This document shows, piece after piece, positions 28,317 to 62,174 of a stretch of DNA of 64,000 nt (positions within the stretch are counted from its first letter, which is position 1; every line of letters begins with the position of its first letter). The translations under genes and the position numbers were made by a program. The DNA is taken from the NCBI GenBank assembly GCA_026710905.1, contig JAPOQD010000059.1:2021-66020 (forward strand). The letters run 5' to 3'. The notes beneath the pieces were generated by a model. That model worked only from the letters and a program-made list of their open reading frames with translations. It made no database searches and had not been told where the DNA came from. The DNA comes from Halieaceae bacterium. Its GTDB lineage: Bacteria > Pseudomonadota > Gammaproteobacteria > Pseudomonadales > Halieaceae.

Positions 28317-30161
28317 ATGAGCATGGACCCCGCCATCGAGGCGTTAATCGGCGAACATCCGTTCGATTCACAGGCCATTGCCGCCCGCTACGCCGAGGAG
28401 CGGGACAAGCGGATTAGACCCGACCACAACGAACAGTACATCGAAGTGAGGGCGGAATTTTCCAACTATAAGATCGACCCCAACGCGAACCCGGATTTCC
28501 AACGCGGTCCCCTGACTGACGAGGTCGAGGTGCTCATTATCGGGGCCGGTTACGGCGGCCTGCTCTGCGGCGCCCGTTTGCGAGAGGCGGGTTTCGAAGA
28601 CATCCGCATCATTGACAAGGCCAACGGCTTCGGTGGCACCTGGTACTGGAACCGCTACCCTGGCCTGCACTGTGACACGGAAGCTTACGTGTACATGCCG
28701 CTGCTGGAAGAAGTCGATTATATTCCCGCCCAGAAATATGCTTCGGGCAGTGAAATCCGCGCCCACTGCGAGAGCATCGCGCGCCATTACCGGCTGGACG
28801 AGGGCGCCTGCCTGCAGACCGCGGTGACAGCCCTGCACTGGAATGAAGATACTCAGCGCTGGCTGGTGTGTACCGACCGCGGCGATGAGATGACGGCGCA
28901 GTACGTACTGATGGCCCTGGGGCCGATGGATTGCGCCCGCCTGCCGGGCATTCCAGGTATAAACGAGTATCGGGGCCATACTTTCCATACCAGCCGCTGG
29001 GACTATGCCTACACCGGTGGCAACGACGAGGACTTCGCACTCACCGGTCTCGCCGACAAGCGGGTGGGCGTGGTGGGCACCGCGTGCACGGGGGTGCAGT
29101 GCATTCCACACCTGGCCCGTCACGCCAGGCACCTGTACGTGTTCCAGCGCACCCCTGCGGCGGTGGATGTGCGGGCGAATCGACCCACTGATCCGGAGTG
29201 GTCCGCCTCCCTCGAGCCCGGTTGGCAGGCCGAGCGCAGCGAGAACTTCAACCGTGTGGTCACCGGCGCCCCCACCGAAGTTGACCTGGTAAGAGACGGT
29301 TTCACCGAGGTGGGGCGCCTGCTCGACCCGACGGCGAGTTGGGCAGCCAATGTTCTGGGGCGGGAACTGACCGAGGAAGAGGGTAACTATATCAACCAGG
29401 TGATGGATGACAAGAAGATGGAACAGATCCGCGCCCGGGTGGATGATGTCGTCAATGACCCGGCAACGGCAGAAAGGCTGAAGCCCTGGCACCGGCGCTG
29501 GTGCAAACGCCCCGAGTTCAGTGATGACTACCTGCCGGTGTTCAACCAGGATAACGTGACCCTGGTGGACACGGCGAGCAAGGACATGCGTTTCACCGAC
29601 ACCGGCGCGGTAGTGGGCGACGAGGAATTTGAGCTGGAGTGTGTCATTTTCGCAACCGGCTACGAGGTGGGTACACCGTACACCCAGCGCACGGGTTACA
29701 CGATCACGGGTCGCGATGGCCTCACGCTCGGCGAGTATTGGAAAAAAGGGATGCGCACCATGAACGGCCTGCATATCCGCGGTTTTCCCAACTGCTTTTA
29801 CGTGGGACTGGGTCAGAACGCGGCAGCCACCAATTTCTGTTTCCTGCTCGATGAACAGTCGAAGCACGTGGCCTACATCCTCAGTGAGGCGAAACAGCGG
29901 GGTGTGCAGACCGTTGAGCCGACCGAACAGGCGGTGGAGGACTACCTGACGGAAGTTTCACCCCTGTCTTACGCCCAGTTGCAGTTCTGGAAGGATTGCA
30001 CCCCCAGCTATTTTAATGGAGAGGGCGACAGCGACAATCCCCACGGGTTTTTCGCCAACGTGCACCCCGGGGGCACGGTGGGATTCTACGATCAACTGCG
30101 GCAATGGCGCGAGGAGGGTAATCTCAAGGGGCTGGAACTGGACGGTCGCGAACTCAAGTAA
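28317..30161 (+). CDS. Baeyer-Villiger (type I flavin-containing) monooxygenase
   Basis: AGGAG SD, then MSMDPAIE.... Motifs IIGAGYGGL, FGGTWYWNRYPGLHCD and the BVMO fingerprint YRGHTFHTSRWD. The ORF track start at 28212 is probably too long. Confidence 0.9.
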   Translation: MSMDPAIEALIGEHPFDSQAIAARYAEERDKRIRPDHNEQYIEVRAEFSNYKIDPNANPDFQRGPLTDEVEVLIIGAGYGGLLCGARLREAGFEDIRIIDKANGFGGTWYWNRYPGLHCDTEAYVYMPLLEEVDYIPAQKYASGSEIRAHCESIARHYRLDEGACLQTAVTALHWNEDTQRWLVCTDRGDEMTAQYVLMALGPMDCARLPGIPGINEYRGHTFHTSRWDYAYTGGNDEDFALTGLADKRVGVVGTACTGVQCIPHLARHARHLYVFQRTPAAVDVRANRPTDPEWSASLEPGWQAERSENFNRVVTGAPTEVDLVRDGFTEVGRLLDPTASWAANVLGRELTEEEGNYINQVMDDKKMEQIRARVDDVVNDPATAERLKPWHRRWCKRPEFSDDYLPVFNQDNVTLVDTASKDMRFTDTGAVVGDEEFELECVIFATGYEVGTPYTQRTGYTITGRDGLTLGEYWKKGMRTMNGLHIRGFPNCFYVGLGQNAAATNFCFLLDEQSKHVAYILSEAKQRGVQTVEPTEQAVEDYLTEVSPLSYAQLQFWKDCTPSYFNGEGDSDNPHGFFANVHPGGTVGFYDQLRQWREEGNLKGLELDGRELK

Positions 30162-30177
30162 GCGTGAAGTGATGAGA

Positions 30178-30855
30178 TCATCTGCCTTCATCAGGCGTCA
30201 GCAGTGAGGCTGTTATCCCCAGCAGTGCTTCGTCAACTACCCTGGTCAGTGCGGGAGCAGGTTCCCTGGCAGCTAAAGCGTTGTCTCGTTCGAGCAGGTA
30301 TCCGTAAAATGTATAAGACTCCATAGTTAGTCGCCGTATCATGCTTGTCCGAGAGAGTCGGGTTAATGGATCGAGTAATTCAAGCAGTTCATGTAACGGA
30401 TCGTCGGCAGGCGGATTTATTGACGGGTGGCGCGCGTAACCGTAAGCGGGGTGTGCCAGAAAGCACATGAGGAATCGAGCGTAACTGTGATTGCGGTCAG
30501 CATCTACCTGTTCGGCAACGGAAAGATACAATATTTCCAGCAGCGTACGCAGATTACTGAGTAAATCCCGATCCCTCGCGAGTCGCAAAAGTTGTGCCCT
30601 TCTCTTTTTCTCTGAGCGAAGACGCATGCGGAAAATTGCGTTTATGAGGCCATCGAGGTTTTTAAAATAGTATTGCACGGCAGATTTATTGGCCTGCCCG
30701 GCAGAATATGCGATTTCGTTCAGGGCCACGCCATCGACTCCCTTCCTGGCAATCATGGATTCCCCCGTAGAGATCAAAGCACGTTCGGTCGGGGATTCAG
30801 GGCCTTCGATGTCCAAAATGCTGGTCAGCTTAAGGCGCTTGACTAATCTGGGCAT
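30178..30855 (-). CDS. TetR family transcriptional regulator (third, divergent type)
   Basis: 225 aa. HTH GESMIARKGVDGVALNEIAYSAGQANKSAVQYYFKNLDGL. Not closely related to paralogs A/B. Confidence 0.85.
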   Translation of the reverse strand: MPRLVKRLKLTSILDIEGPESPTERALISTGESMIARKGVDGVALNEIAYSAGQANKSAVQYYFKNLDGLINAIFRMRLRSEKKRRAQLLRLARDRDLLSNLRTLLEILYLSVAEQVDADRNHSYARFLMCFLAHPAYGYARHPSINPPADDPLHELLELLDPLTRLSRTSMIRRLTMESYTFYGYLLERDNALAAREPAPALTRVVDEALLGITASLLTPDEGR

Positions 30856-31068
30856 TTCCCTGGATTGCTCTTTACGAATGATTGGTTACAGAGACTATCA
30901 CTGTTGCGAGACGATAGTAGTTCATTCGTGGGGGAAGGGGTAGCACATACCAAGTGAGCAGCTTGTGAGATGTTGCACGCCTCAGTGCCTGGTACTGGGT
31001 GGCCTGCCTGTCTGAACGGGGCACACACAGAGAGATGCGTAGACGATTTGCCGAGCAAGCGAAAAGGC

Positions 31069-31082
31069 TAGACAAATGATGT
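31069..31082 (+). promoter_or_regulatory. candidate operator, TAGACAAATGATGT (weaker second half)
   Basis: In the 349-nt region between the third TetR and LuxE-like 1. Confidence 0.4.
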
Positions 31083-31087
31083 TTTGA

Positions 31088-31101
31088 TATGCTAGCGTCT
31101 A
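31088..31101 (-). promoter_or_regulatory. variant operator candidate, plus-strand TATGCTAGCGTCTA (= TAGACGCTAGCATA)
   Basis: Shares the 10-mer TAGACGCTAG with the site at 48107-48120. Followed by TATAAG. Confidence 0.35.
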
Positions 31102-31204
31102 TATAAGTAAAGCTACTTAATAATAAGCACCTGCACAGCCACGTACTGATGTGACAACCTGGTGGAATACAAGGTAAAAAGTAGAAGATAGCAGGGAGGT
31201 CGAG

Positions 31205-32617
31205 GTGTCAATTCACGAAGACGCGCTGAAAATGTGCAATAACCCGAAAGAATATTTCAATAATGATGGGTATAACGCGCACCATATGCCGCTAGAGGAA
31301 CTGCACGCGATGCAGCTGGCGGGCGCTCAGGCTCGTTTCTCAGCTCTGAGAGACCAGATACCGGTACTCCAATCTGTAGCAGATAATTTAGGAATCGACA
31401 AAGTCGACAGTTTCGAAGCAATTGGTCTACTGTTGTTTCCGCATACGATGTACAAGTCGTATCCCAGCTCATTTCTCGAAAAATCACGATTTACGGACCT
31501 CACCAAATGGCTGGACCGTCTTACTGCAGTTTCGATCTCGTCTCTTCCAGTAGGCGATTGCGAGACGATTGACGAATGGCTGGATGTTCTTGACGACGAA
31601 TCACAGCTCCGCGTGTTGCACTCCTCCGGCACGTCGGGGACCATGTCATTCCTGCCGCGAACAAAGCGTGAGTACGAAACATTCTTTGGTCTGACGCGTA
31701 TGTGTCTTCTGGAGGCATTGAAGGAAGAACTGCGTCCAGGGGATAACGACTTTTTTCATGTTATTTCATTGGGGTTCAGCACAGGGCGCAGTGGAGCTCT
31801 AAGGGCGCAGCAGGCCTTTAGAGAACAGCTCGCTGGGTCGGATGACCGTTACCATCCTTTGCACGATGTTCCCATGAGTTCCGATGTCATGTATATGGCG
31901 GCGCGCCTTCGCCGAGCGGAGGCCCGCGGAGAAATCGATAGTCTAGTGGTGAATCCCAAGATACGGGCCCGGCGGCAGGAGTTCGAAGAAACGCAGCGCA
32001 GCCTTGCACAATCCATACGGCGATTGTTCGATGAGGTAATCGCGGGTCTTATCGATCAGCGTGTGTTCATGGTTGGTATGTGGTCCCAGCTTCAGGCTGT
32101 GGCCGGCGAAGGCCTGGCGCGGGGGATCACCGAAGCCTTTGCGCCGGGGAGTATCGTTCAAGGGGGTGGCGGCGCCAAGGGCGCTGTTATGGAAGACGGC
32201 TGGGAGGACGATGTCAAGCGCTTCGCGGGTGTCCAGCGATTCATGAATACCTACGGCATGTCGGAATTAATGAGTGTGAATTACCTGTGCGAAGATGATC
32301 GTTTTCATCTGCAACCCTGGATTGTGCCTATGATTCTTGACCCGGATAGCAGTAAACCACTGCCCCGCGCGGGGGTGCAGACAGGGCGAGCAGGTTTCAT
32401 GGACCTGTTGGCGCAGACCTACTGGGGGGGATTTATCTCCGGCGATGAAGTTACTATTGACTGGTTGCCCTGTCGCTGTGGGCGTACATCGCCCAACCTG
32501 AAAAATGACATACGCCGCTTTAGTGACAAGCAGGGTGGGGACGACAAGATCAATTGCGCAGCCGCTGACGAGGCACACGGCGCTGCGATCAATTTTCTTG
32601 CCTCCGATTTGGGATAA
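31205..32617 (+). CDS. LuxE-like acyl-protein synthetase / PaaK-like adenylate-forming enzyme (copy 1)
   Basis: 470 aa. GTG start with GGGAGG SD. HSSGTSGTMSF (adenylation P-loop), QGGGGAKG, YGMSELMS, HLQPWIVPMILDPDS..PLPRAG.QTGRAGFMDL and CRCGRTSP. These match the LuxE pattern as I recall it (SSGTRG, GGGWK, PPW..A.DP). Confidence 0.75.
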   Translation: MSIHEDALKMCNNPKEYFNNDGYNAHHMPLEELHAMQLAGAQARFSALRDQIPVLQSVADNLGIDKVDSFEAIGLLLFPHTMYKSYPSSFLEKSRFTDLTKWLDRLTAVSISSLPVGDCETIDEWLDVLDDESQLRVLHSSGTSGTMSFLPRTKREYETFFGLTRMCLLEALKEELRPGDNDFFHVISLGFSTGRSGALRAQQAFREQLAGSDDRYHPLHDVPMSSDVMYMAARLRRAEARGEIDSLVVNPKIRARRQEFEETQRSLAQSIRRLFDEVIAGLIDQRVFMVGMWSQLQAVAGEGLARGITEAFAPGSIVQGGGGAKGAVMEDGWEDDVKRFAGVQRFMNTYGMSELMSVNYLCEDDRFHLQPWIVPMILDPDSSKPLPRAGVQTGRAGFMDLLAQTYWGGFISGDEVTIDWLPCRCGRTSPNLKNDIRRFSDKQGGDDKINCAAADEAHGAAINFLASDLG

Positions 32618-32631
32618 ACGGAAGGGTACTG

Positions 32632-34083
32632 ATGGCAACGATTACCGGTGCGGCTTTCATTCGCGGAGAGATATACAGCGATAGTCTTGTCACTTTTGGT
32701 GGTCGAGGGGGTGATGCTTCATTTCTTGCGCCGGATCCGATGAGCCTGCTTGATCACCTACCCCTGCGTGACCCGGGTGCGCTTCGAGATCTTTATGAAC
32801 TCAAATTCGACGATATTGTTGATTATCTGGTCGAGCTGGGCGAGGGGCTTGATTTATCGAAAAACGAGTTCGTGCAGGAAGCGCTGGAGCATTCCTATTT
32901 GATGACGGATATGACGCCTCCGCTTCTCCATCGTCAGTACAGTGAATTCCGCCATATTTTCAGGAGGGAGTTCGTGCGACAGATGGCTGATGTGCCCATC
33001 GGCATACCCTTGCTTGAGGATTGGCAGGAAGTGCAGCTCAGTGATGGACGGCTGGCGTCGATTCGGGCGATGGGTGCGCGCTCACTCCACATCGTTGCGG
33101 GAAACAGTCCGTTTGTTACCGCAATCACCATTGTTCGCAATGCGATTACTCGCAGCGATGCGATCATCAAGCTACCCTCTAACGATCCATTGACAGCATT
33201 GGCGATCGCTCGAACCATGGCTGACTTCGCACCGGATCACCCGTTGACGAAGCATTTATCAGTCGCGTACTGGAAAGGCGGGACCGAAGAGTTCGAGCAG
33301 CGGCTTTATCTGCCCAGCAACCTGGAAAAGATTGTTGCCTGGGGAGGTTTCGCATCCCTGAAACATGTGACTCGATACATCCATCCGGGTTTGGAACTCA
33401 TCTCGCTGGACCCCAAGCGTAGTGCCACAGTGATCGGTCAAGAAGCATTTGCGAGCGAGGCATCGATGCGGGAGGTTGCACGCCGTGCTGCATCGGATAT
33501 GGGTTCTCTCAATCAGTTGGGCTGTACTGCCGCCAGGGTCATCTATGTGGCTTGCGGGACAGGCATTGAAGGTGTGGTAAAGCTGAACCACCTCGGAGAA
33601 ATGATCTATGAAGCATTACTGGGTCTGCCGGGGTCGATCAGCTCCAAACCGAAGCGGTTTGACCCTGAATTGCGGGATAACATCCGCGTGTTGAAATCCT
33701 TTGAAGACTACTACACGGTCATTGGCGGCGAGGAGGACGAAGGCGCCGTCATAGTCTCTCATGCAGGTGAGCCCGTCGATTTTCATACTTCGCTGGCGGG
33801 CCGTGTCGCGAACCTGGTCCCGATAGACAAGCCACTGGACGCCCTCAGGGGAATGAGTGCCTATACACAGACAATCGGTATCTATCCTGAAGCGCTGAAG
33901 AGCGAACTACGGGATATTCTGCCGTTATACGGCGCCCAGCGGATGGTTTCCCTGGGTTATGCGAACACCGGCAATTCCTCGCTACCGCAGGATGCCATCG
34001 AGCCGACGCGACGGATGTGCAAGTGGATTGTTGACGAATCCTGTGATCCGGCGCGTATCCCTGCTCCCTGGCTGGAGAATTAG
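32632..34083 (+). CDS. LuxC-like acyl-CoA/acyl-protein reductase (copy 1)
   Basis: 483 aa. HIVAGNSPFVTAITIVRNAITRSDAIIKLPSNDPLTALAIARTMADFAPDHPLTKHLSVAYWKGG...IVAWGGFASLKHV...LISLDPKRS follows the LuxC consensus closely. Candidate catalytic Cys in NQLGCTAARVIYV. Confidence 0.8.
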   Translation: MATITGAAFIRGEIYSDSLVTFGGRGGDASFLAPDPMSLLDHLPLRDPGALRDLYELKFDDIVDYLVELGEGLDLSKNEFVQEALEHSYLMTDMTPPLLHRQYSEFRHIFRREFVRQMADVPIGIPLLEDWQEVQLSDGRLASIRAMGARSLHIVAGNSPFVTAITIVRNAITRSDAIIKLPSNDPLTALAIARTMADFAPDHPLTKHLSVAYWKGGTEEFEQRLYLPSNLEKIVAWGGFASLKHVTRYIHPGLELISLDPKRSATVIGQEAFASEASMREVARRAASDMGSLNQLGCTAARVIYVACGTGIEGVVKLNHLGEMIYEALLGLPGSISSKPKRFDPELRDNIRVLKSFEDYYTVIGGEEDEGAVIVSHAGEPVDFHTSLAGRVANLVPIDKPLDALRGMSAYTQTIGIYPEALKSELRDILPLYGAQRMVSLGYANTGNSSLPQDAIEPTRRMCKWIVDESCDPARIPAPWLEN

Positions 34084-34096
34084 AGGAGGATCGGGA

Positions 34097-35788
34097 ATGG
34101 AAAGAGAGGCTCGTAAGTACACGGCGAACATCGAAGATCTGCTGGTTGTTGACGAACCGGACAAGCTTGCGTGGCATGATCGAGCGAATCTGGTCGTTAT
34201 CGGATTCGGCGGCGCGGGCGTCGTGGCCTCCCTTCAAGCCCTGGAGCAGGGTGGTAGTGTAATCGCGGTGGACAGGTTTAGCGGCGGTGGGGCTACCGAA
34301 AAGAGCGGTGGAGTAGTGTACGCGGGTGGAACGCGCCATCAGCGCGATGCTGGGTTTGATGACACGGTTGAAGAGATGTTCAAGTATCTCTCCTATGAGG
34401 GAGTACCCGTTCGCGACGAAACTTTGCGACGTTTTTGCGAGACCAGCAACGAGAACATTGAGTGGCTGGAGGGGTTTGGCGTCCGATTCGGCTCCTCATA
34501 TTTCGAGGAACGTATATCCTACCCCCCCGAAGGGTATTTTCTCTACTATTCAGGCATGGAGAAGTTTCGCGGTGACCGCGCGAAGATTGTTCCGCGTGGG
34601 CATCGCACTCTGGGTAGAGGACCAACAGGACAGAACTACTTTGCGCCCCTGAAGGACGCGGCGCTGCGCAAGGGAGTTCGGTTGATCACGCATGCTCCCG
34701 CACGTCGTCTGGTCGTTGATTCTGTGGGGCGTGTTATCGGTGTGGAGATCCAGGTGATTCCCGAGGCGCATCGCGCCAGGCACGAGTCTCTGTACCAAAA
34801 AGTGGACCCCTATAAACTCGGTAGCGGCAGGGTCGCGGAAAAGGCGATTGCAGACTGCCGCGCTTTTGAGGAGAGCGTACCGACTGAACGACGATTGTTG
34901 AGGGCTGACCGCGGCGTGGTCCTTGCTGCGGGGGGCTACAATTACAACCTGGAACTATTCGCCAAGTACCGGCCTATCATCAAGGACGTGTATGGTGATA
35001 TTACCAGGGGCGGTTCCATGGGGTGCGATGGTAGCGGAATCGAACTCGGTATCAGTGCCGGCGGCGCACTGAGCCACATGGATCGCTTCTTTGTGACGAA
35101 GCCTCTATCACCACCACCGTCCTTTGTTCAAGGCGTCCTGGTCAATGCCGAAGGGCAGCGCTACATTGCAGAAGATGCTTATCTGGGTAACATTGGTTGC
35201 GCCACATCCGAGCAGAGCGGTCTGGGAACCGCCTGGTTGATACTCGACAATCGCATTTTCTGGAAAGGATTCCGGGAACTGATCTGGCCGCTTAAGAATG
35301 CTTTTTCCTGGTACGGTTTGCCCGCCATTTTAAACATATTCCTGGGCGGAACGAAACGCGCTCGATCCATTGTTGAACTCGCCTCTCGATGTGGTATCGA
35401 GGAAAGTGGGCTGGAACGCACTCTGTCAGAATTCAATGTGTGTGCGAAACAGCGTCTCGATACCGAGCATGGCAAGATGGCAATTCACTTAACGGCCCTG
35501 GAGAATCCTCCCTACTTTGCGCTCAATATGTCCCTGCGCAATAAGTGGTGCTTCTCGGGAGCGATGCCGTTTGGTGGATTGACCGTTGAAGAAGACACAG
35601 GTGTGGTCACGAGGGCCGATGGGTCGCTTGTTGAAGGCCTGTATGCAGCTGGACGTACAGCGCTGGGAGTCTGCTCCGAAAGCAATTTCAGTGGGCTCTC
35701 GATTGCAGACACCATTTTTTCCGGGCGTCGCGCGGCGAGTGCTGCACTCTCGTCAGGCGTTGTGCAAGCAGTACCTGAAGCGATTTGA
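34097..35788 (+). CDS. FAD-dependent oxidoreductase, KstD/fumarate-reductase-flavoprotein-like (copy 2)
   Basis: GGAGGA SD, then MEREARKY.... NLVVIGFGGAGVVASLQALEQGGSVIAVDRFSGGGATEKSGGVVYAGG. Paralog of 25717-27408. The ORF track start at 33959 overlaps LuxC and is probably too long. Confidence 0.85.
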   Translation: MEREARKYTANIEDLLVVDEPDKLAWHDRANLVVIGFGGAGVVASLQALEQGGSVIAVDRFSGGGATEKSGGVVYAGGTRHQRDAGFDDTVEEMFKYLSYEGVPVRDETLRRFCETSNENIEWLEGFGVRFGSSYFEERISYPPEGYFLYYSGMEKFRGDRAKIVPRGHRTLGRGPTGQNYFAPLKDAALRKGVRLITHAPARRLVVDSVGRVIGVEIQVIPEAHRARHESLYQKVDPYKLGSGRVAEKAIADCRAFEESVPTERRLLRADRGVVLAAGGYNYNLELFAKYRPIIKDVYGDITRGGSMGCDGSGIELGISAGGALSHMDRFFVTKPLSPPPSFVQGVLVNAEGQRYIAEDAYLGNIGCATSEQSGLGTAWLILDNRIFWKGFRELIWPLKNAFSWYGLPAILNIFLGGTKRARSIVELASRCGIEESGLERTLSEFNVCAKQRLDTEHGKMAIHLTALENPPYFALNMSLRNKWCFSGAMPFGGLTVEEDTGVVTRADGSLVEGLYAAGRTALGVCSESNFSGLSIADTIFSGRRAASAALSSGVVQAVPEAI

Positions 35789-35876
35789 AGGCCTCGCTTT
35801 TCGGCTGTGTGGAGCGCCCGCCCGAAATGATGTGGGGGTGCGAAAAGACCGTCTCGCAATATACGAGTAAACAATA

Positions 35877-35890
35877 TAGACATTTGTTGA
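35877..35890 (+). promoter_or_regulatory. candidate TetR-type operator, TAGACATTTGTTGA
   Basis: Lies 123 nt upstream of the TonB-dependent receptor start. Followed by TTTATATTGT. Confidence 0.55.
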
Positions 35891-36012
35891 TTTATATTGT
35901 AAGCTGCTATTGTTTAAGCAATACTACTTAAATAGTGTGATGCAACTTCAAATAACACGAGTCTAGCCAGCTGTTGGTTGGCAGTGATCTCAAGAATCCG
36001 GGAGTAATCTTT

Positions 36013-38400
36013 ATGAGTAGCAAGTACCTCGCCTTGAAATTGGGTCCCCTCATGATCCTGCTATCAAGTCTCGCTGTTGAGTCCGTTGCCACAGAGCTGG
36101 AGGAAGTCATCGTAACAGCGCGGAAACGTGCTGAATCGCTACAGGATGCACCCCTGGCAATTACAGCTCTGAGGATGGAGGACATTGAACGCTTTGGCTA
36201 TCGCGACCTGGAATCGGTCGCCGACCAGATGCCAGAGTTGATCATCAATGTCAACGCGGCGGCGACTGCCGGCGCTATCGCCCTGAGGGGTGTGTCATCA
36301 GGGACCTTCGGCTCAGATCTTGACCAGGCTGTGTCCAGGAATATCGATGGCGTAGTAATCAGCCGGGCCGTCTCGCTGGTGTCGGGGTTTCACGACTTAC
36401 AGCAGATCGAAGTGCTTAAGGGGCCGCAGGCGCTGTTCTGGGGTAAGAACAGTCCCGGAGGCATTATCAGCTTCACCACGGCGGACCCCGGTGAAGAGTT
36501 CGAAGCCGATGTTACCCTGGGCCACGAAACGGAAATGGAGCAAGCCTATGTTAGCGGCGTGCTTTCTGGCCCCATCAGCGATAACTGGGGTGCCAGGCTA
36601 GCTGTCAAGTACCTGGACCAGGAAGGTCATATGGATAACGAGGTAGAAGGAGAAAAGTGGAATCAATTGGAAGACATTGAAGACACCTTCTTGCGCTTCA
36701 CCTTGGTGGGTGACATTACAGACAAGCTCAGTGTCCGAGCTAAGTTGGCCTACAACGAGACTGATTCCAGCGGTAACTTTGGCGCTGCTCAGAGCTATTA
36801 TTGCCCGACTGCTCCAGCACCGGGTGATCAGTGTAAGCTGGATGACGATGTGCGCTCAGTCGGCGACCCAAGGGCTGCCGGCTACGGGCCCTGGGCGGAG
36901 TTCTATGCGGATGGCCAACCTTTTCAGGATCTTGAAAATACGCTGGCGAGCGTGGAGATAAACTACGACTTTGGCAACATGACGTTGAGCGCACTCACGG
37001 GCTGGAATGAGTGGGAGAGGGGCTTCTTGTCCATTGACCCCATCAGTGAAATTCCTGGTTTTATCAGCGGGAATGGGTACAAATATGACTCGATTTCGCA
37101 GGAGATTCGCCTCTCCAGCGAGCATGAGGGTCCATTTCAGTTCATGCTGGGGGCGTTCTGGCAGCAGGTGGATAGCGACGTGGTCGGCACGGGCTACTTC
37201 CACGATCCTTTTGTGCAGTTCACCAATCCTGGCAGATTGATCGATAAATCGCAGGATACCTTGTTCTGGTGGATCGGCACACAATCCGATGTCGCTACGG
37301 ATGCCTGGTCAGTGTTTTTGCAGGGTTCGTACGATATCACCGACACGCTCAATCTAGCCGTCGGGGTGCGCTATTCAGAGGAAGAAAAGGAAGCGAACAA
37401 ATTCCACAACACCTGCTATGCGCCCATTGTGTTTGGATCGTTCGAACCGATGACGGAAGACAATTGTATTCCGTTTCCTGCCCCGGGATATCAGGAGTGG
37501 GATGGCCTCGAATATGATGCGGATAATACATCACCGGAGGTTACGCTGACCTGGCAACCCCAAGACAACGTTACCTATTACGCTTCGTACAAGGAGGGAT
37601 TCAAGTCAGGTGGATTCAACCTCACCTTTACAATTACTGAAAACCCCATTTTTGACGAGGAAACGGTGGAGGGATTTGAGGCCGGCATAAAAGCGGAATT
37701 GTTGAATCGCCGCCTGCGTGTGGATTGGGCGCTTTACAGCTATGAGTACACTGATTTACAGGTATCAGCCTGGGATCCAGTAACCTCCCAGATCGACATT
37801 TTCAATGCCGCCGAAGCAACGGTCGAGGGAACGGAACTCGCCCTGACCTATATACCGGAGGCAGTAAGTGGCCTGACGCTTACGACTCAGATTGCTTACA
37901 ACAATGCGGAATACGACGAATTTGAAACACGCTGCTATGTCGGGCAAACAATCGCGGGGGGTTGTACGATTGGCCCGGATGATATGGGTGCATTTCAGGT
38001 GCAGGACCTTTCCGGGGATAAGCTGAATTACGCGCCGGAATTCGGCGCAACGTTTGCCGCCGTTTTCGAAGCTCCGCTAGGCAACACCAGCTTGAGCTAT
38101 AACCTGTCAGCAAGCGCAAACTATACCGATGAGTACATGGCGCACGACGCGTTCAACCCACAGGCGGTGATGACTGACGCCTGGCGCTACAACGCTTCTG
38201 CCCGCCTGTACGGGGCCGATAAGCGCTGGGAACTTGCCGTGATCGGCAGAAACCTCTCCGATGAGCGGCGAGTAACCTACACGCAGGAGGTAAGAGGCAC
38301 CGGATTTGGAACCGGCACAAATGATGGATTGTCGGCCAATTTGTCGGGCTGGGGATCCATGCCGCGCCAGATCGAGTTGCAGGCCACCTATCGATTCTGA
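36013..38400 (+). CDS. TonB-dependent outer-membrane receptor
   Basis: Signal peptide MSSKYLALKLGPLMILLSSLAVES, plug domain (EEVIVTARKRAESLQDAPLAITAL), a long beta-barrel and a C-terminal ...LQATYRF ending in Phe. Confidence 0.9.
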   Translation: MSSKYLALKLGPLMILLSSLAVESVATELEEVIVTARKRAESLQDAPLAITALRMEDIERFGYRDLESVADQMPELIINVNAAATAGAIALRGVSSGTFGSDLDQAVSRNIDGVVISRAVSLVSGFHDLQQIEVLKGPQALFWGKNSPGGIISFTTADPGEEFEADVTLGHETEMEQAYVSGVLSGPISDNWGARLAVKYLDQEGHMDNEVEGEKWNQLEDIEDTFLRFTLVGDITDKLSVRAKLAYNETDSSGNFGAAQSYYCPTAPAPGDQCKLDDDVRSVGDPRAAGYGPWAEFYADGQPFQDLENTLASVEINYDFGNMTLSALTGWNEWERGFLSIDPISEIPGFISGNGYKYDSISQEIRLSSEHEGPFQFMLGAFWQQVDSDVVGTGYFHDPFVQFTNPGRLIDKSQDTLFWWIGTQSDVATDAWSVFLQGSYDITDTLNLAVGVRYSEEEKEANKFHNTCYAPIVFGSFEPMTEDNCIPFPAPGYQEWDGLEYDADNTSPEVTLTWQPQDNVTYYASYKEGFKSGGFNLTFTITENPIFDEETVEGFEAGIKAELLNRRLRVDWALYSYEYTDLQVSAWDPVTSQIDIFNAAEATVEGTELALTYIPEAVSGLTLTTQIAYNNAEYDEFETRCYVGQTIAGGCTIGPDDMGAFQVQDLSGDKLNYAPEFGATFAAVFEAPLGNTSLSYNLSASANYTDEYMAHDAFNPQAVMTDAWRYNASARLYGADKRWELAVIGRNLSDERRVTYTQEVRGTGFGTGTNDGLSANLSGWGSMPRQIELQATYRF

Positions 38401-38419
38401 CGGTGGTAGTGCAGGCAGG

Positions 38420-38445
38420 GCACGGCTGTCATTTTAAGGCCGTGC
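38420..38445 (+). terminator. possible stem-loop terminator after the receptor gene
   Basis: GCACGGC-12 nt-GCCGTGC, 20 nt after the stop codon. There is no U-tract, so this is weak. Confidence 0.3.
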
Positions 38446-38581
38446 GCTGGCGAATTTGCGCAGGTTTCCAATAAGCAGGCAACAAAGTCAGGAAATCGGA
38501 ACGTCGGTGCAGCAGGCGCGCTTTACACTTTGTATTGCCGCCTTCTGATACTTCGCAGCGCAAGGCGCCAGGATACGTTCA

Positions 38582-40012
38582 ATGACCAGTTCAGTTGATT
38601 TGCGACGGGCACGCCAATTGGCGGATGATCCGGGGGTTTTTTTCGAAGGGAATTACACAAAGATGCAATCGATCGCCTGGGAGGATCTTTCAAAATTGCA
38701 TCTTGAGGCACTGAAAATCCGTTTTGAGGAAAAACGTGATGCAATTCCCATGCTTGAAAAACTGTCGAATCAGGCAAAGGTCGATACTCTCTCCACTATC
38801 GACGATGTTGTTCCTGTTCTGTTTGATCACACCACTTACAAGTCATACCCCAATGCACTTCTCGATTCAGGCCGATTTGACCAACTGACTCGCTGGTTGG
38901 ACAAGCTCACGACGCACGACCTGTCGGATGTGGACGCTTCGCATTGTGACAATATAGACAGTTGGATGGATGCCCTTGATAAACAGACCGACCTGAAAGT
39001 TGGCCACAGTTCCGGATCCACAGGCACCATGTCTTTCCTGCCTCGAGGCGCCGAGGAGTTGGACAAGTACATCAGGAACATGAAGATAGAGCTGTTCCAG
39101 GAATTTGGCAGCGATGAGGTCGTTCAGGACGAACCGCTCAATCTTCATGTGATCTATCCGTTTTTCAGACACGGCGCAAGTTCTCATATTCGGGCTCTCG
39201 AGTTCTGGGTGAAGCACTTTGCGGGGGATGAGGAGCGTTTGCACGTGCTTTATCCCAGAAGAATGAGCTCGGATGTGATGTATCTTTCTGCACGTATTCA
39301 GGCAGCCGCTGCGCGAGGCAATCTCGACAGCGTCAAACTCAGTGACGAGATGCGGGAGAGAATGAACGAGTTTCACAAACTGCAGAAAGAACTTCCCCAG
39401 TTACTGGAGAAGTATGTGGAAAATGAACTCAAGTCCTTTGCAGGTGAGCGTGTGTTGGCCACCGGCCCTTGGACGATCAACTGGGACATGGCCAAGATCG
39501 GCCTGGAGCGGGGAATGCGTAACATGTACAGCCCCGACTCGGTAGTATTGACAGGCGGCGGTACCAAGGGGCGTGAAGTACCGGAGGACTGGCGGGAGCC
39601 TATACGCGAATTCATCGGCTCCCGCCGTATTCAAGCCATGTATGGCATGACAGAGTGTATGGGGTCACACCTGCTGTGTGAGCACGAGAAGTACCATATT
39701 GCGCCTTGGATTATTCCTTATGTACTCGATCCCGACACCTGTACCCCGCTGCCAAGAACCGGCAGAGTTACCGGTCGTGCTGCGTTCTTTGACCTGACGG
39801 CGGAGGTGCTGTGGGGGGGGTTCATCACTGGCGACGAGGTCACGATAAACTGGGCCGCAAATTGCCCCTGTGGTAGAACCAGCCCCTATTTCGATTACAA
39901 GATTCAGCGCTACAAAGACATCAAAGGGGACGACAAAATCACCTGTGCCGCCAGTGCGGAGGCCCACGAAGAGGCCCTCAGTTTCCTGAACAGTTTTGGC
40001 ACAGGACGCTAG
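38582..40012 (+). CDS. LuxE-like acyl-protein synthetase / PaaK-like adenylate-forming enzyme (copy 2)
   Basis: 476 aa. HSSGSTGTMSF, TGGGTKG, YGMTECMGS, HIAPWIIPYVLDPDT..PLPRTG and CPCGRTSP. Paralog of 31205-32617. Confidence 0.75.
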   Translation: MTSSVDLRRARQLADDPGVFFEGNYTKMQSIAWEDLSKLHLEALKIRFEEKRDAIPMLEKLSNQAKVDTLSTIDDVVPVLFDHTTYKSYPNALLDSGRFDQLTRWLDKLTTHDLSDVDASHCDNIDSWMDALDKQTDLKVGHSSGSTGTMSFLPRGAEELDKYIRNMKIELFQEFGSDEVVQDEPLNLHVIYPFFRHGASSHIRALEFWVKHFAGDEERLHVLYPRRMSSDVMYLSARIQAAAARGNLDSVKLSDEMRERMNEFHKLQKELPQLLEKYVENELKSFAGERVLATGPWTINWDMAKIGLERGMRNMYSPDSVVLTGGGTKGREVPEDWREPIREFIGSRRIQAMYGMTECMGSHLLCEHEKYHIAPWIIPYVLDPDTCTPLPRTGRVTGRAAFFDLTAEVLWGGFITGDEVTINWAANCPCGRTSPYFDYKIQRYKDIKGDDKITCAASAEAHEEALSFLNSFGTGR

Positions 40013-40022
40013 GGGTACGAGT

Positions 40023-41495
40023 ATGAATACGGCAATTGCGCCGATGGTGATCCGCGGTAAGATCATTGAAGAGAATCTCATCGAGTTTGGTGGGCGGGCC
40101 CAAGGCTTCGTCTTCCGATCGCCTGATCCGCACGCCTACGTCGAAGAAATTGGTCTGACCAGCCCCGATGCACTGGCTGACCTCTATCAGCTCAGCTTTA
40201 CCGATATACTGGATTATCTGGAGGAACTCGGACAACGGCTGGTTCTCGAAGACAACCAGCATCTGCAACAGGCGTTCGAAGCGGCCTGCGCGACGGCGGC
40301 CATGACTCCCCCGTTATTGCGTGTTCAGTACGCTTCGATTCCGGCATTCCTTGGCAATCGAAAAGCGCTCATCGAGTCCGCGGAACAATCGATTGGAATT
40401 GCACACCTGGAAGGATGGGTGGAGGGATCAACCTGCACGGGGCATGCAACGCGCATACGCGCATTTGGCGCGCGGACCGTGCACGTCATTGCGGGTAATG
40501 CACCCTTACTGTCTGCCATGACGGTGGCGCGCAATGCAATGTTGCGCAGCGATGCAATCATTAAGCCGCCCTCTAATGACCCGCTGACTGCAGCTGCCAT
40601 CGGGCGCCAGATGGTGGAAATGGCGCCTGATCATCCGCTCACCAGGCATCTTTCGGTCGCTTACTGGAAGGGTGGCGACGAGGCCTTTGAAAGCAGGCTA
40701 TACCAACCCCGGAACGTGGAGAAAATCATCGCCTGGGGTGGCTTCGCGTCTGTGAAACACGTTACCAGATATATTCAACCCGGGTTGGAACTGATCTCGC
40801 TGGATCCGAAGAGCAGCGCTAGCATAATCGGCCCAGAGGCATTCGCCAGTGAAGAGACTCTTGCTGACGTTGCCCAGAAAGTAGCCGCCGATGTGGGGCT
40901 ACATAATCAACAAGGCTGTGTCAATGCGCGCGTGGTATATGTGTTATCCGGCACGGACGAACAAGGAATCAATCAATTGGAACGGTTGGGCAGGCTGGTC
41001 TATGAAAAGATCCAACAACTCAATCCGCAATTGAGCACCGTGGCGGAGCGGTACAGCCCAGAATTGAAAGCCCACGTCGATACGCTGAAGCTCGATGATG
41101 ATTGGTATTCCGTGATCGGGGGAGAGGACAAAGAGGGGGCCATCATTGTCTCCAGGCTTCCCGCACCTGTCGATTTCTCCGCTGCCCTGTGTGATCGCAC
41201 CGCTAACCTCGTGCCCATTGACTGCCTGGACGAGGCAATTGCGTTCGTGGATGCCTACACCCAGACTGTTGGCATCTACCCGGAAGCCTTAAAGCAGGAT
41301 CTGATGGACATACTGCCGCTTCATGGAGCGCAGCGGATTGTCTCACTGGGATATGCCACCCAGATGTCAAATGCCGCACCGCACGACGGACTGGAGCCGA
41401 TGCGGCGCATGTGCAAGTGGATTTTGGAAGAAAGTGCCGACCCGAGCACGGTGCCCCCATTCTGGAGCACGGCAGGTTTCAGCGGGACTATATGA
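40023..41495 (+). CDS. LuxC-like acyl-CoA/acyl-protein reductase (copy 2)
   Basis: HVIAGNAPLLSAMTVARNAMLRSDAIIKPPSNDPLTAAAIGRQMVEMAPDHPLTRHLSVAYWKGG...IIAWGGFASVKHV...LISLDPKSS and NQQGCVNARVVYV. Start taken at MNTAIAPMVIRGK. Confidence 0.8.
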   Translation: MNTAIAPMVIRGKIIEENLIEFGGRAQGFVFRSPDPHAYVEEIGLTSPDALADLYQLSFTDILDYLEELGQRLVLEDNQHLQQAFEAACATAAMTPPLLRVQYASIPAFLGNRKALIESAEQSIGIAHLEGWVEGSTCTGHATRIRAFGARTVHVIAGNAPLLSAMTVARNAMLRSDAIIKPPSNDPLTAAAIGRQMVEMAPDHPLTRHLSVAYWKGGDEAFESRLYQPRNVEKIIAWGGFASVKHVTRYIQPGLELISLDPKSSASIIGPEAFASEETLADVAQKVAADVGLHNQQGCVNARVVYVLSGTDEQGINQLERLGRLVYEKIQQLNPQLSTVAERYSPELKAHVDTLKLDDDWYSVIGGEDKEGAIIVSRLPAPVDFSAALCDRTANLVPIDCLDEAIAFVDAYTQTVGIYPEALKQDLMDILPLHGAQRIVSLGYATQMSNAAPHDGLEPMRRMCKWILEESADPSTVPPFWSTAGFSGTI

Positions 41496-41556
41496 CGGGT
41501 TGTTTCGCTACACCGAGTGTTACTGTCATGAGAACTATCAGTAGGAAGAAAGAGAA

Positions 41557-42591
41557 GTGAAATACAAACTGTTCGGCAAGAGTGGGCTCCGGGTGTCGGA
41601 GCTATGCCTGGGGGCCATGACCTTCGGAGATGGGGAGAGCTGGTTATCAGGGCGTGAAGAGAGCTTCAGGATTCTGAGTGCCTACGCCGAAGCTGGTGGA
41701 AACTATATCGATACTGCGAATATTTACGCGCATGGGCAGAGCGAGCAGATCGTTGGCGAATTCATCAGCTCAGATAGAGAACAATTCGTCATCGCCACCA
41801 AGTATACCCATGCCTTTCCGGGAACAGCCCCGGTAAATGGTGCCGGCAATCACCGCAAAAGCATGGTATCTGCGCTGGATAGTAGTCTCAAACGCCTCAA
41901 TACAGACTATATAGATATCTACTGGTTGCATCTGTGGGATTTCTTGACCCCGGTTGATGAAGTCATGCGTGCCCTGAACGATGCAGTAGCAGCGGGCAAA
42001 ATTCACTACATTGGATTCTCTGATGTGCCGGCCTGGATAGTCGTACAGGCTAACATGGTTGCTGAACGCCATGGTTGGAACCCGATTACAGGCCTTCAGT
42101 TGGAATACAGCCTGGTCCAGCGATCCATTGAGCGCGAACTCATTCCCATGGCGCGAGCGTTTGATATCAGCGTGAATGCCTGGTCGCCATTGTCTTCGGG
42201 AGTATTATCAGGAAAGTACACCCGGGGCAAAGAGGCAGATTTCAGGCGTGGTTCGGCTGGTTTTGATATCCATACACTGAATGACGAGAAACGGCTGATA
42301 GCCGAAGCTGTTGATGAAATCGCCGACGAGATCGGAATTTCTTCTGCTGCAGTAGCGCTGAGCTGGGTGCTGTGCAAGGGAACAATACCAATATTGGGCG
42401 CTCGAACCTCTGAACAGCTTGCCGACAATTTGACATGCCTCGATTGTAAGTTGACCGAAAAGCAGATTGCGAAACTGGACGAGATAAGTGCCATTGATTT
42501 TGGGCATCCCTACGACATGCTGGACAACCCCGGTGTTATTGCAGTGACCTATGGTGGTTTTCGGGAGCAAATCGATTTTCCGGCCGGTTGA
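41557..42591 (+). CDS. aldo/keto reductase
   Basis: 344 aa with a GTG start. MKYKLFGKSGLRVSELCLGAMTFG...NYIDTANIY...IDIYWLH. Confidence 0.9.
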   Translation: MKYKLFGKSGLRVSELCLGAMTFGDGESWLSGREESFRILSAYAEAGGNYIDTANIYAHGQSEQIVGEFISSDREQFVIATKYTHAFPGTAPVNGAGNHRKSMVSALDSSLKRLNTDYIDIYWLHLWDFLTPVDEVMRALNDAVAAGKIHYIGFSDVPAWIVVQANMVAERHGWNPITGLQLEYSLVQRSIERELIPMARAFDISVNAWSPLSSGVLSGKYTRGKEADFRRGSAGFDIHTLNDEKRLIAEAVDEIADEIGISSAAVALSWVLCKGTIPILGARTSEQLADNLTCLDCKLTEKQIAKLDEISAIDFGHPYDMLDNPGVIAVTYGGFREQIDFPAG

Positions 42592-42612: not shown

Positions 42613-43821
42613 ATGGCGGTAGCCCTCGATGGCGTAAGAGTGATAGAGCTGGGGCAGGAGATCCAGGGCCCCTATGCCACCCTGTTCCTGGCCGACATGG
42701 GCGCCGATGTGATTAAGGTGGAGAATCGTGAGGGCGGCGACCTGGCCCGGCAGATGACGGTGGGTCGCATTGCTGGCGAGGAGCTGCCCCACGGGGATTT
42801 CCAGCAGTATTTTTTCCTGCTGAACCGCGGCAAACGCAGCCTCACACTGGACCTCAAGCAGGAGCAAGGCAAGGAAATCCTGCTGCGCCTGCTGGACAGC
42901 GCCGACGTGCTGCTGACCAATTTCCGCCCCGGGGTGCTCGAACGGTTGGGCTTTTCCTACGACGACTTGTGTGAGCAATTTCCACGCCTGATCCATGCCA
43001 CCGCTTCTTCCTGGGGTCCGAAAGGGCCCTGGGCGACCCGGCCCAGCCGCGACATGCTGGCCCAGGCAGCGGCAGGCATCATGACCAAGACGGGTATGGA
43101 AGATCAGCCGCCGTTGCCCGCGGGTTTCGTTGCCGGCGACTATTCTGGAGCGGTATTCGCTGCCATGGGGATTCTCGCGGCGCTCTATGCCCGAGAGCAG
43201 ACCGGCAGTGGCCAGAAAGTGGATACTTCCATGTACGGCGCCCTGCTCGCGCTGCAACCCTGGGAGCTGATCCAGGCCTCGATTACAGGCAGGTAAAATC
43301 GCCGCGCCGGCCGCGGCCACCAGTTTCTGAACGGAGCCTGGGGCGCGTTCCAGACCAGCGACGGCTGGATCGCCATCGCCGGTATTGAAGACAGCCGCTG
43401 GCCCGGGTTCTGCGAGGCAATCAACCGCCCGGATCTGGTTGACGATCCCGACTACGACAAGGACAGCCGAAATTTCGCCGGGGAGCGGATTCACCAACTG
43501 CTGGACGAGGTGCTGTTGCAGCGCACCACCGATGAGTGGCTGGAATTGTTCCTGGCAGCGGACCTGTTTGTTACCGCCGTGGCTGATTACGACGACGTGC
43601 TCAATAGCGAGCAGGCCCTGGAGAACGGCTACATACGCTGGGCTGAGCATCCAGAGGTGGGTCGTTTCAAGATGGTAGGCCCCCCCGTCACGCTCAGTGA
43701 AACCCCCTTTGCCGAGGTGAAGCCCGCCCCGGTACTGGGTGAGCACACTGATGAGGTTTTGCGGGAACTTGGTTTCGATGAGGAGGCCATTGCCAAGCTG
43801 AAACAGTCTGGCATTGTCTGA
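42613..43821 (+). pseudogene. family III CoA-transferase (CaiB/BaiF type) interrupted by one in-frame TAA
   Basis: ORFs 42613-43296 and 43510-43821 are in the same frame. The only interruption is TAA at 43294-43296, and the frame is open from 43297 onward. It reads ...ITGR*NRRAGRGHQFLNGAWGAFQTSDGWIAIAGIEDSRWPGFCEAINRPDLVDDP..., which continues the family pattern. N-terminal LDGVRVIELGQEIQGPYATLFLADMGADVIKVE. Confidence 0.8.
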
Positions 43822-48369: not shown

Positions 48370-49275
48370 ATGTCGAATCAGGAACTGGAACAGGTGATTG
48401 AGAAAATCCGGGCATCCCGGGCGGGGTGGGACGAAAACACCAGCATGGAGACCATCCGCATCGACCTGGATGTGCTGGCTTGCTCCTTTGCTGGAGTCGC
48501 CGGCAGCACGGTGGATCAGCTGGATGCCAACGGTGTGCCTGCGGAATTCGTAGCCGCGCCCTCTGCCGGGAGTGATGGGGTGGTCCTGTACCTGCATGGG
48601 GGTGGCTTCGCCGTGCACTCGGCGAAATCGCACCGGCACCTGGCCCAGTGGATCTCCAACGCGGCGGGGGTACGGGTACTGGTAGTTGATTATCGACTGG
48701 TCCCCGAGCATCGTTTCCCGGCCCAACTGGAGGACGCCCGGGCGGCCTATGACTGGTTGCTGCAACGGGGTACGGATCCCGGCAAGCTGTGTATCGCGGG
48801 CGATTCCGCCGGCGGTGGCCTGGCGTTGGCGCTGACCGCTGTCCTGCGGGGCGCGGAGACCGCCCTGCCCGCCGGGGTTGCAACCGTTTCGGCCTGGGCG
48901 GATGCCCGCTGTGCCGGCAACAGCTACCGGGAGCTGGCCGACGTGGACCCGGTTGGGATCTACGATATGGCGCTCTCCATGGGTGCCGATTACGTGGGAG
49001 AGGGCGGCAACCTGGACGACCCGTATGCTTCACCGGTGCACCTGGACTACGCCGGGTTTCCGCCACTGTTGCTGCAGGTCGGCACCCGCGACATGTTCAT
49101 TGATGATTCACGTACCGTGGCGGCTGCCGCCAGGGCCGCGGGAGTGTCGGTACAACTCGATGAGTGGGCCGGGATGATTCACCAGTGGCCGATGTATGCT
49201 GCGGAACTGGAGGAGGGCCGACGCGCCATCGATGAGATGGGCGGGTTTATCCGGCGCTGTATCAGCGCGCGGTGA
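48370..49275 (+). CDS. alpha/beta hydrolase, hormone-sensitive-lipase-type esterase
   Basis: 301 aa. Oxyanion motif HGGGF and nucleophile elbow GDSAGGGLA. Confidence 0.88.
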   Translation: MSNQELEQVIEKIRASRAGWDENTSMETIRIDLDVLACSFAGVAGSTVDQLDANGVPAEFVAAPSAGSDGVVLYLHGGGFAVHSAKSHRHLAQWISNAAGVRVLVVDYRLVPEHRFPAQLEDARAAYDWLLQRGTDPGKLCIAGDSAGGGLALALTAVLRGAETALPAGVATVSAWADARCAGNSYRELADVDPVGIYDMALSMGADYVGEGGNLDDPYASPVHLDYAGFPPLLLQVGTRDMFIDDSRTVAAAARAAGVSVQLDEWAGMIHQWPMYAAELEEGRRAIDEMGGFIRRCISAR

Positions 49276-49303
49276 ATCTCCTGGACACAGCGGGTTAACG
49301 CTA

Positions 49304-56156: not shown

Positions 56157-56278
56157 CAGTTTTTCTCCCGAACAATAACTATGTGGATGGTCTGCCCTAT
56201 CAGTCACATGGTGTGAAACTAGCAAATGATTCAAGAAAATTATTGGACATAGCACGCAGATTGCGGTATGAGTTCGGC

Positions 56279-61409: not shown

Positions 61410-61420
61410 GATTAGCCCGC

Positions 61421-61858: not shown

Positions 61859-62138
61859 CTGTAGCTGAAAAAAACGCTCGATTTTGTAGTGCCTCTTACT
61901 TACATTTTTCCAATGTGACGGTCTGTTAGCTCTGTCACTACTGAGTCTCGCTCCTACTCGTTTCCTACTGCATGACATCGCCCGATTCGGGCATTCAACT
62001 CAACGCATAATCACACCATCACATCCAGTGCCTGCAACGGATTGGCCCGCGCCTTTCGCTATGCTACCGTGTGATCCGTTTCCCGTTGGTGCACGCTCTG
62101 GTCTTAGACGGTTTATAGGCAATTAAGTAAGTTCGTGG

Positions 62139-62166
62139 TACAATTTCTGCGTTAATTCACAGAAAT
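62139..62166 (+). promoter_or_regulatory. promoter/operator candidate for the AbiEi gene
   Basis: Extended -10 TGgTACAAT (62136-62144) overlaps the inverted repeat ATTTCTG-N10-CAGAAAT (62143-62166), 9 nt before the ATG. Confidence 0.4.
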
Positions 62167-62174
62167 CGTGAACT

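Follow-up and report, generated by a model that had tools for sequence, protein, structure and literature searches.

Two tandem LuxE/LuxC-type gene pairs in a catabolic island of a Halieaceae bacterium, candidate two-component carboxylic acid reductases outside luminescence

A 64,000-nucleotide stretch of DNA from a marine Halieaceae bacterium (contig JAPOQD010000059.1 of assembly GCA_026710905.1, positions 2,021 to 66,020; hereafter the window, whose own numbering is used throughout) carries two copies of a two-gene unit on its forward strand. In each copy, a gene for a truncated, LuxE-like adenylate-forming enzyme and putative acyl-protein synthetase (E1, 31205-32617, 470 aa; E2, 38582-40012, 476 aa) is followed by a gene for a LuxC-family acyl-thioester reductase (C1, 32632-34083, 483 aa; C2, 40023-41495, 490 aa from its ATG). 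The locus probably encodes two carboxylic acid reductases, paralogous to each other and each made of two components of the LuxE/LuxC type, which would convert carboxylic acids to aldehydes at the expense of ATP and NADPH. The component chemistry is familiar; the E family is unrecognised, and its catabolic and polyketide contexts are new. The initial annotation of this DNA had described the four open reading frames (ORFs), all found at the positions it gave, as two diverged copies of one unit, which BLASTP comparison bears out: E1 and E2 are 39% identical over 463 aa (E=2e-123), and C1 and C2 are 53% identical over 481 aa.

The second gene of each pair was readily placed. C1 and C2 scored 113.6 and 135.1 bits against the Pfam LuxC model (PF05893, cut-off 21), with 400 of its 401 positions covered, and neither matched the ordinary aldehyde dehydrogenase family PF00171 at E<=0.01. 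Furthermore, C2 aligned end to end (residues 57-470) with the solved Photobacterium LuxC structure 7xc6_A (E=9.1e-33), and the Cys of its NQQGC motif fell in the same column as the LuxC acylation Cys (DQQAC). The predicted catalytic residue, Cys298 in C1 (NQLGC) and Cys299 in C2, was kept in 78/78 of the C homologues collected (C1 numbering). All of the LuxC-type motifs first quoted for these proteins are indeed present, namely H(I/V)(V/I)AGN, RSDAIIK.PSNDPLTA, PDHPLT(K/R)HLSVAYWKGG, AWGGFAS.KHV, LISLDPK, and NQ.GC, and the proposal that the second genes are of LuxC type thus stands. Scores against the NCBIfam equivalog of luminescence LuxC (NF052251) were 116 bits for C1 and 136 bits for C2, far under its cut-off of 750. 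On sequence grounds, C1 and C2 are therefore members of the LuxC family and not LuxC orthologues.

The LuxE-like build of the first genes emerged from their architecture. A profile made from 32 E homologues found LuxE (7xc6_E, E=3.5e-4) as its best sequence match in the PDB, followed by the PaaK-type ligase ClxA (E=1.2e-3). In an AlphaFold2 model of E1 (pLDDT 85.8), the chain continues after residue 433 only as a helix, a disordered loop (444-454, pLDDT <50), and a second helix, with no C-terminal alpha/beta subdomain. Past the last aligned core strand, E proteins have 40-50 residues, close to the 38 of LuxE, compared with 100-155 in PaaK-type ligases, and the E chain stops about 20 residues after a hinge-like DD(K) motif. 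The sites recognized in E1 comprise a P-loop (S141-G145), K325 within GGGAKG, R438, and the tail residue Cys451. The GGGaK loop of E aligned with the GGGWK loop of LuxE both in the PDB profile alignment and with MAFFT, while ClxA has AGE at this place. In LuxE, the Lys of this loop (K238) is essential and stands in for the missing lysine of the C-terminal domain (PMC9157457). The tail Cys of E1 and E2 (DDKI.CAA) shared a MAFFT column with the Cys of the LuxE K-G-C-A-L motif (Cys364), and the Arg preceding it was aligned as well, in a small alignment that used five fragments returned by a search with a 140-aa LuxE fragment. Among 87 E proteins, K325 was conserved in 87/87 and both R438 and Cys451 in 86/87. 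The motifs originally read in the first genes are likewise all present: HSSGTSGTMSF/HSSGSTGTMSF, GGGAKG/GGGTKG, YGMSE/YGMTE, PWIVP..LDPD, and DDKINCAA/DDKITCAA (the last in E1 and E2, respectively).

Several observations weigh against a LuxE/LuxC-type reductase. E1 reached only 16.9 bits against the Pfam LuxE model (PF04443, cut-off 24.9), and E2 had no LuxE match and only an AMP-binding match at 16 bits, below threshold; neither protein reached threshold with any curated Pfam or NCBIfam model, those for LuxE and PaaK included. Of the 32 family members, 13 gave a weak match to AMP-binding and six a weak match to LuxE. A Foldseek search with the E1 model returned PaaK1/PaaK2 (2y27) as top folds (E=1e-10, TM 0.53-0.57), with LuxE absent from the top 50 matches. 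The tail Cys could serve another role, and the ATP and NADPH cost of acid reduction is unusual for a degradative island. The profile search proposed with the initial annotation thus placed C1 and C2 in LuxC and left E1 and E2 outside both LuxE and PaaK: their adenylate-forming nature and the alignment of their tail Cys with Cys364 of LuxE hold, whereas LuxE membership by hidden Markov model (HMM) does not. Because the curated LuxE thresholds failed, the LuxE-type assignment of E1 and E2 rests on architecture and partnership, and the two proteins belong to an unannotated ANL family with a LuxE build.

Some of these observations would suit the main rival, in which E is an ordinary PaaK-type acid:CoA ligase and C an acyl-CoA reductase or, in the oxidative direction, a CoA-acylating aldehyde dehydrogenase supplying beta-oxidation. 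The top Foldseek folds and the weak AMP-binding matches point that way, LuxC accepts acyl-CoA in vitro (PMC9157457), and the island contains beta-oxidation-type genes and a pyrroloquinoline quinone (PQQ) alcohol dehydrogenase. However, the ANL C-terminal subdomain, which bears the A10 lysine and provides the thioester-forming conformation, is missing from E. E also has no match at threshold to PaaK or to any other Pfam or NCBIfam model, and the invariant Cys of its tail and Lys of its loop are characteristic of LuxE. The island, moreover, already has two full-length AMP-binding CoA ligases (20184-21899 and 49196-50899), and the commonest downstream partner of the pair in other genomes is an Ahr-like alcohol dehydrogenase. 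Given the missing subdomain and the ordinary CoA ligases nearby, this rival is weakened, and we consider it unlikely.

E proteins also carry a residue set that is shared in part with other ligases. In E1, C362, H368, C423, and C425 (window positions ~32288-32479) are invariant in 86-87 of the 87 E proteins and resemble a Cys3His metal site. ClxA (9s3l) and P0273, a LuxE-family metagenome fragment (PCPCGR), have this Cys/His/Cys/Cys set as well; Photobacterium LuxE is without the first Cys of the set, an Asp being aligned there, and the Photorhabdus-type fragment P0271 is without the CxC. The residues common to E and ClxA (C..H and CxCG), together with the rank of ClxA as second-best PDB match of the E profile, could suggest that E forms amides or esters, as do the PaaK-type ligases ClxA and NatL2, and that its link to C has some other basis. 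Such a role would leave unexplained both the loss of the C-terminal subdomain and the near-obligate pairing and co-variation of E with a LuxC-family reductase, described below, and we regard it as highly improbable.

We next turn to the distribution of the unit. In a representative library clustered at 50% identity, 348 clusters matched the E family at E<=1e-30, a number that rises to 857 at E<=1e-10. In a collection holding one genome per species, 195 stretches were confirmed to carry the family. Carriers include Actinobacteria (Mycobacterium, Streptosporangium, Streptomyces, Kribbella, and Frankia) and Proteobacteria (Pseudomonas, Paraburkholderia, Massilia, sphingomonads, Porticoccaceae, and Spongiibacteraceae), and nearly all members are annotated as 'hypothetical protein'. 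Neighborhoods were counted with purpose-built family HMMs run over all ORFs of 80 loci. A C gene directly followed E on the same strand in 68/81 evaluable cases, in Actinobacteria and Proteobacteria alike, and lay within 6 kb of E in 80/86. The distance matrices of E and C were strongly correlated (Mantel r=0.915), and the pair is therefore inherited as a unit. The E-C unit is thus widespread and not tied to luminescence. The composition of the locus had initially seemed without precedent; the unit itself turns out to be present in at least 195 species, and luciferase-free luxE-luxC pairs are annotated elsewhere, whereas a full-text literature search found nothing on what the E family does, nor on a unit of this kind in catabolic or polyketide synthase (PKS) loci.

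The genes that follow the pair bear on the direction of the reaction. Right after C, the 66 pairs scored had a zinc-dependent alcohol dehydrogenase (Zn-ADH; 18 cases), a P450 (10), an APH-type kinase (9, normally with a short-chain dehydrogenase/reductase (SDR) next), an SDR (7), a TonB-dependent receptor (2), a PQQ alcohol dehydrogenase, an FAD protein, or an aldo/keto reductase (AKR; 1 each), the remaining 17 being unclassified; an AKR stands directly after C here and in locus L090, an unrelated metagenome contig. The Zn-ADH resembles Ahr, and because enzymes of this kind are known to reduce aldehydes with NADPH, it argues for the reductive direction. SDR and alcohol dehydrogenase genes are common in any catabolic island, and their raw counts next to the pair are weak evidence. 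Two gene types next to the Halieaceae pairs recur elsewhere, in line with co-occurrences that the initial annotation had proposed to look for: TonB-dependent receptors adjoin E-C in nine other cases (e.g., L010, L024, L050, and L051), and a homologue (64% identical) of the KstD-like flavoprotein found here between the pairs lies near the E-C pair of L010. A TetR gene was found within 6 kb of 35/86 E genes in other genomes.

Beyond these counts, distinct architectures could be recognized, each given here in gene order with a spaced slash marking separately grouped genes. Marine gammaproteobacteria have a TonB receptor before E-C, with a PQQ alcohol dehydrogenase, Zn-ADH, or AKR nearby. In Pseudomonas and Burkholderiales, the arrangement is TetR, 4HBT thioesterase, iron-dependent alcohol dehydrogenase / E-C-Zn-ADH (Ahr-like), with Pseudomonas serbica and P. 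nicosulfuronedens among its culturable carriers, and in sphingomonads it is TetR, P450 / E-C-SDR followed by an enoyl-CoA hydratase and two acyl-CoA dehydrogenase genes. Actinobacteria show TetR / (F420-type luciferase-like monooxygenase (LLM)) E-C-APH/EcKL-SDR, as in L007, L008, L017, L018, L020, and other loci, where TIGR03857 F420-dependent LLM oxidoreductases flank the unit. Because the kinase follows what would be an acid-to-alcohol module, phosphorylation of the alcohol product is suggested for these loci. We also considered whether such actinobacterial loci (LLM-E-C) are ancestral lux operons, and rejected this since the LLMs belong to TIGR03857 (329-372 bits, cut-off 218). Two other candidates also fall outside the E family: the 'lux-like' mel2 locus of M. 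marinum and the 'LuxE-like' FadD genes of M. avium paratuberculosis. In marine gammaproteobacterial metagenome-assembled genomes (MAGs; Porticoccaceae, Ca. Azophilus, and Azotimanducaceae), four loci (L024, L040, L053, and L089) hold two to three E genes each, including E-E tandems and C-E-E orders.

The architecture of Streptosporangium and its relatives, iterative type I PKS-E-C-P450, raises the question of whether the unit is biosynthetic and supplies an aldehyde or alcohol as a building block, for instance a fatty alcohol destined for wax esters, a lipid modification, or a secondary metabolite. The four-gene set, with a 1982-aa PKS (KS-AT-DH-KR-ACP), was observed in Streptosporangium, Kribbella, and Frankia (L004, L027, L028, L031, L037, L043, L054, and L082), and there the E-C pair may reduce the released polyketide acid. 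The placement of the pair between PKS and P450 in these genera and in Streptomyces speaks for a biosynthetic role, as do the luxE-luxC pairs of Aeromonas, which lie in flagellin glycosylation islands with acyl carrier protein (ACP) genes (PMC7874193). In the Halieaceae window, by contrast, the ORFs scanned included no PKS, ACP, wax synthase, or glycosyltransferase, the neighbors being a TonB receptor, a TetR regulator, a Baeyer-Villiger monooxygenase (BVMO), P450s, Rieske oxygenases, esterases, and CoA ligases, and comparable genes of catabolic type surround the unit in L010 and L090, the nearest relatives. We thus hold a biosynthetic purpose to be decidedly unlikely for this locus.

From the family of C1 and C2, the architecture and residues of E, and their genetic coupling, we infer the following chemistry, direction, and substrate for the two-component reductase. 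Through its ANL core, E would bind a carboxylic acid and ATP and form an acyl-adenylate, with the Lys of the GGGxK loop (K325) replacing the missing C-terminal-domain lysine. The acyl group would then pass to the Cys on the flexible C-terminal tail of E itself (Cys451 in E1), and this tail would swing into C and hand the acyl group to the active-site Cys (Cys298 in C1, Cys299 in C2), where NADPH would reduce the bound thioester to the free aldehyde. For pair 2, the downstream AKR most likely reduces the aldehyde to the alcohol, while the aldehyde of pair 1 would go to a neighboring redox enzyme. The acids are probably bulky and hydrophobic, imported by the TonB-dependent receptor and handled by a TetR-controlled island for terpenoid- or steroid-like substrates. 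Running the pair backwards, with ATP gained from aldehyde oxidation, was rejected on thermodynamic grounds, which were estimated and not computed.

The closest known counterpart is LuxE-LuxC of Photobacterium phosphoreum (7xc6), also made of two proteins, with a reductase of the same Pfam family and the same active-site Cys, and with an adenylating partner devoid of the ANL C-terminal subdomain, whose GGGxK loop contains the Lys and whose flexible C-terminal tail bears a Cys. Unlike the lux system, the present locus has no LuxA/B and, among the ORFs scanned, no LuxD; E precedes C, the surroundings are catabolic, and myristate is probably not what the enzymes reduce. In length, E exceeds LuxE by about 100 residues (some 40 at the N-terminus plus an insertion of 50-60 residues); it also has the invariant Cys/His/Cys/Cys set that the Photobacterium protein does not share, and it fails the LuxE HMM thresholds. 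Pairs of luxE and luxC without luciferase have been annotated in flagellin glycosylation islands of Aeromonas and Enterobacteriaceae (PMC7874193, PMC4875605). They resemble the present unit in being luciferase-free E-then-C pairs, but they are annotated as luxE and luxC and stand with ACP, ketoreductase, and glycosyltransferase genes, whereas here E is a 'hypothetical protein' among catabolic neighbors. PaaK1 (2y27) and ClxA (9s3l) offer the closest fold for the N-terminal domain of E, with the P-loop and YGxTE and, for ClxA, the CxCG and C..H residues; they differ in keeping the C-terminal subdomain and its A10 lysine and in using CoA or an amine as acceptor.

Carboxylic acid reductases (CARs), such as Nocardia Car and Mycobacterium FadD9, catalyze the same overall conversion of acid, ATP, and NADPH to aldehyde via an enzyme-bound thioester. 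CARs are, however, single polypeptides with adenylation, peptidyl carrier protein, and reductase domains (A-PCP-R), a phosphopantetheine arm, and an SDR-type reductase, in contrast to the proposed protein Cys carrier and the aldehyde dehydrogenase-fold reductase of the present pair, and neither E nor C has a Pfam match to PP-binding or NAD_binding_4. Engineered hosts pair CARs with aldehyde reductases of the Ahr or AKR type. Another route to an aldehyde from a thioester outside luminescence is provided by TabE of the tambjamine BE-18591 pathway, a stand-alone acyl-ACP reductase that clusters with LuxC in a sequence network (bioRxiv 10.1101/2025.08.11.669332); TabE differs in being ATP-independent, in acting on an ACP or CoA thioester, and in having no LuxE-like partner.

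If the proposed mechanism is true, a second, phosphopantetheine-free route from acid to aldehyde would be common outside luminous bacteria, spanning Pseudomonas, Paraburkholderia, Mycobacterium, Streptomyces relatives, sphingomonads, and marine gammaproteobacteria. It would also assign a function to the E component, a family of about 350 sequence clusters now labeled 'hypothetical protein', and offer biocatalysis a compact system of two proteins as an alternative to CAR enzymes. Finally, it would raise the question of why degradative and polyketide loci spend ATP and NADPH on acid reduction. There is an outside chance that E-C serves as a reductive activation for removing carboxyl carbons that beta-oxidation or decarboxylation cannot reach, through an aldehyde-specific oxidative cleavage of the C-C bond. 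Targets may be, for example, terpenoid, steroid, or naphthenic acids whose carboxylate is attached to a quaternary or ring carbon, and the cleavage could be a P450 deformylation or a Baeyer-Villiger oxidation (by a BVMO or an LLM) to a formate ester. Reductive activation would explain why so costly a step recurs beside P450s in catabolic islands, and here beside a PtlE-like BVMO.

Seven genes between 31205 and 42591 share one direction, in the order E1, C1, flavoprotein, TonB-dependent receptor, E2, C2, and AKR, and domain searches confirmed the three neighbors first named for the pairs. The FAD-binding flavoprotein of the KstD/fumarate-reductase class (34097-35788 (+); PF00890, 120.8 bits; NF005511, 554 bits against a cut-off of 466) has a 58% identical paralogue at 25717-27408(-). 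It is followed by the TonB-dependent outer-membrane receptor (35974-38400 (+)), a putative substrate importer with plug and beta-barrel domains, and the AKR (41557-42591 (+); PF00248, 255 bits) after C2 is the putative aldehyde-to-alcohol enzyme. E1, which is identical (100%) to a hypothetical protein from a Halieaceae MAG, starts with GTG, with GGGAGG 6 nt upstream; for C2, an alternative TTG start at 39996 is also in the open frame. Divergent from E1 lies a TetR-family regulator (30178-30855 (-)), whose PF00440 score of 20.7 bits (E=3.7e-4) is under the cut-off of 24 and which has several NCBIfam TetR-type matches besides. The intergenic region between the two contains the inverted repeat TAAGTA-N4-TACTTA (31104-31119), 86 nt upstream of the E1 start; it is a candidate operator, short enough that a chance occurrence stays possible. 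Promoter and terminator scans gave no more sites than in shuffled sequence.

The two pairs have separate histories. E1 and C1 group with L010, L011, and L029. The closest company of E2 is formed by further copies from marine gammaproteobacteria, and C2 clusters with the Pseudomonas/Paraburkholderia type. Because they fall in different sublineages, the pairs are old paralogues and not the result of a recent tandem duplication. Both pairs and the AKR reappear at about 70% identity on the contig L090, which holds orthologues of C2 (72%), the AKR (72%), E1 (69%), and C1 (71%) in another order, with the C2-AKR adjacency kept, and both pairs and the reductase therefore seem to be parts of one pathway. 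The E-C segment (30001-42000) has a G+C content of 0.515-0.549, compared with 0.60-0.64 in the flanks (24-30 kb and 44-52 kb), and this lower value suggests that it entered the genome independently of the remaining island.

In the surrounding island, scans of the window ORFs identified two Rieske oxygenase alpha subunits, two P450s, a PtlE-like BVMO, an LLM-family gene, about nine SDRs, the two full-length CoA ligases, an enoyl-CoA hydratase, two Abhydrolase_3 esterases, a BKACE enzyme, the PQQ alcohol dehydrogenase, and a cholesterol-oxidase-like flavoprotein of the vanillyl-alcohol oxidase (VAO) type. The type I BVMO (28317-30161 (+)) is closest to the pentalenolactone D synthase PtlE (704 bits, cut-off 1100) and adjoins the TetR gene divergent from E1. 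The LLM-family gene (22033-23058 (-); PF00296, 183 bits), located 8 kb upstream of E1, reached no NCBIfam subfamily cut-off and scored 77 bits against the 600 required by the luciferase alpha model, and it is thus not LuxA or LuxB. The statement that the locus has no luciferase or LuxD gene accordingly holds for LuxA/B and, among the window ORFs scanned, for LuxD, while a member of the wider luciferase-like family is present. Three P450s, one in the window 7 kb from E1 and two adjoining E-C elsewhere, had generic nearest structures (CYP125-like, P450cin, PikC, and others) that gave no substrate clue. The VAO-type flavoprotein (54390-56297(-)) carries a cholesterol-oxidase substrate-binding domain (PF09129, 336 bits) and, together with the three KstD-class flavoprotein genes of the window, one of them truncated, hints at sterol-like substrates. 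Overall, the island contents point to terpenoid- or steroid-like substrates, without identifying the acid.

Two further features touch the integrity and extent of the island. Directly after the AKR, a family III CoA-transferase gene (42613-43821(+)) contains one in-frame TAA at 43294-43296, past which the same frame runs on to a normal end; the interrupted gene may be a pseudogene or reflect an assembly error. Toward the far end of the window, a truncated FAD_binding_2 fragment with the N-terminal part only (61337-61858(+)) is followed by an AbiEi-type antitoxin/regulator gene (62175-62978(+)), and this region (61337-62978) may mark the edge of the island.

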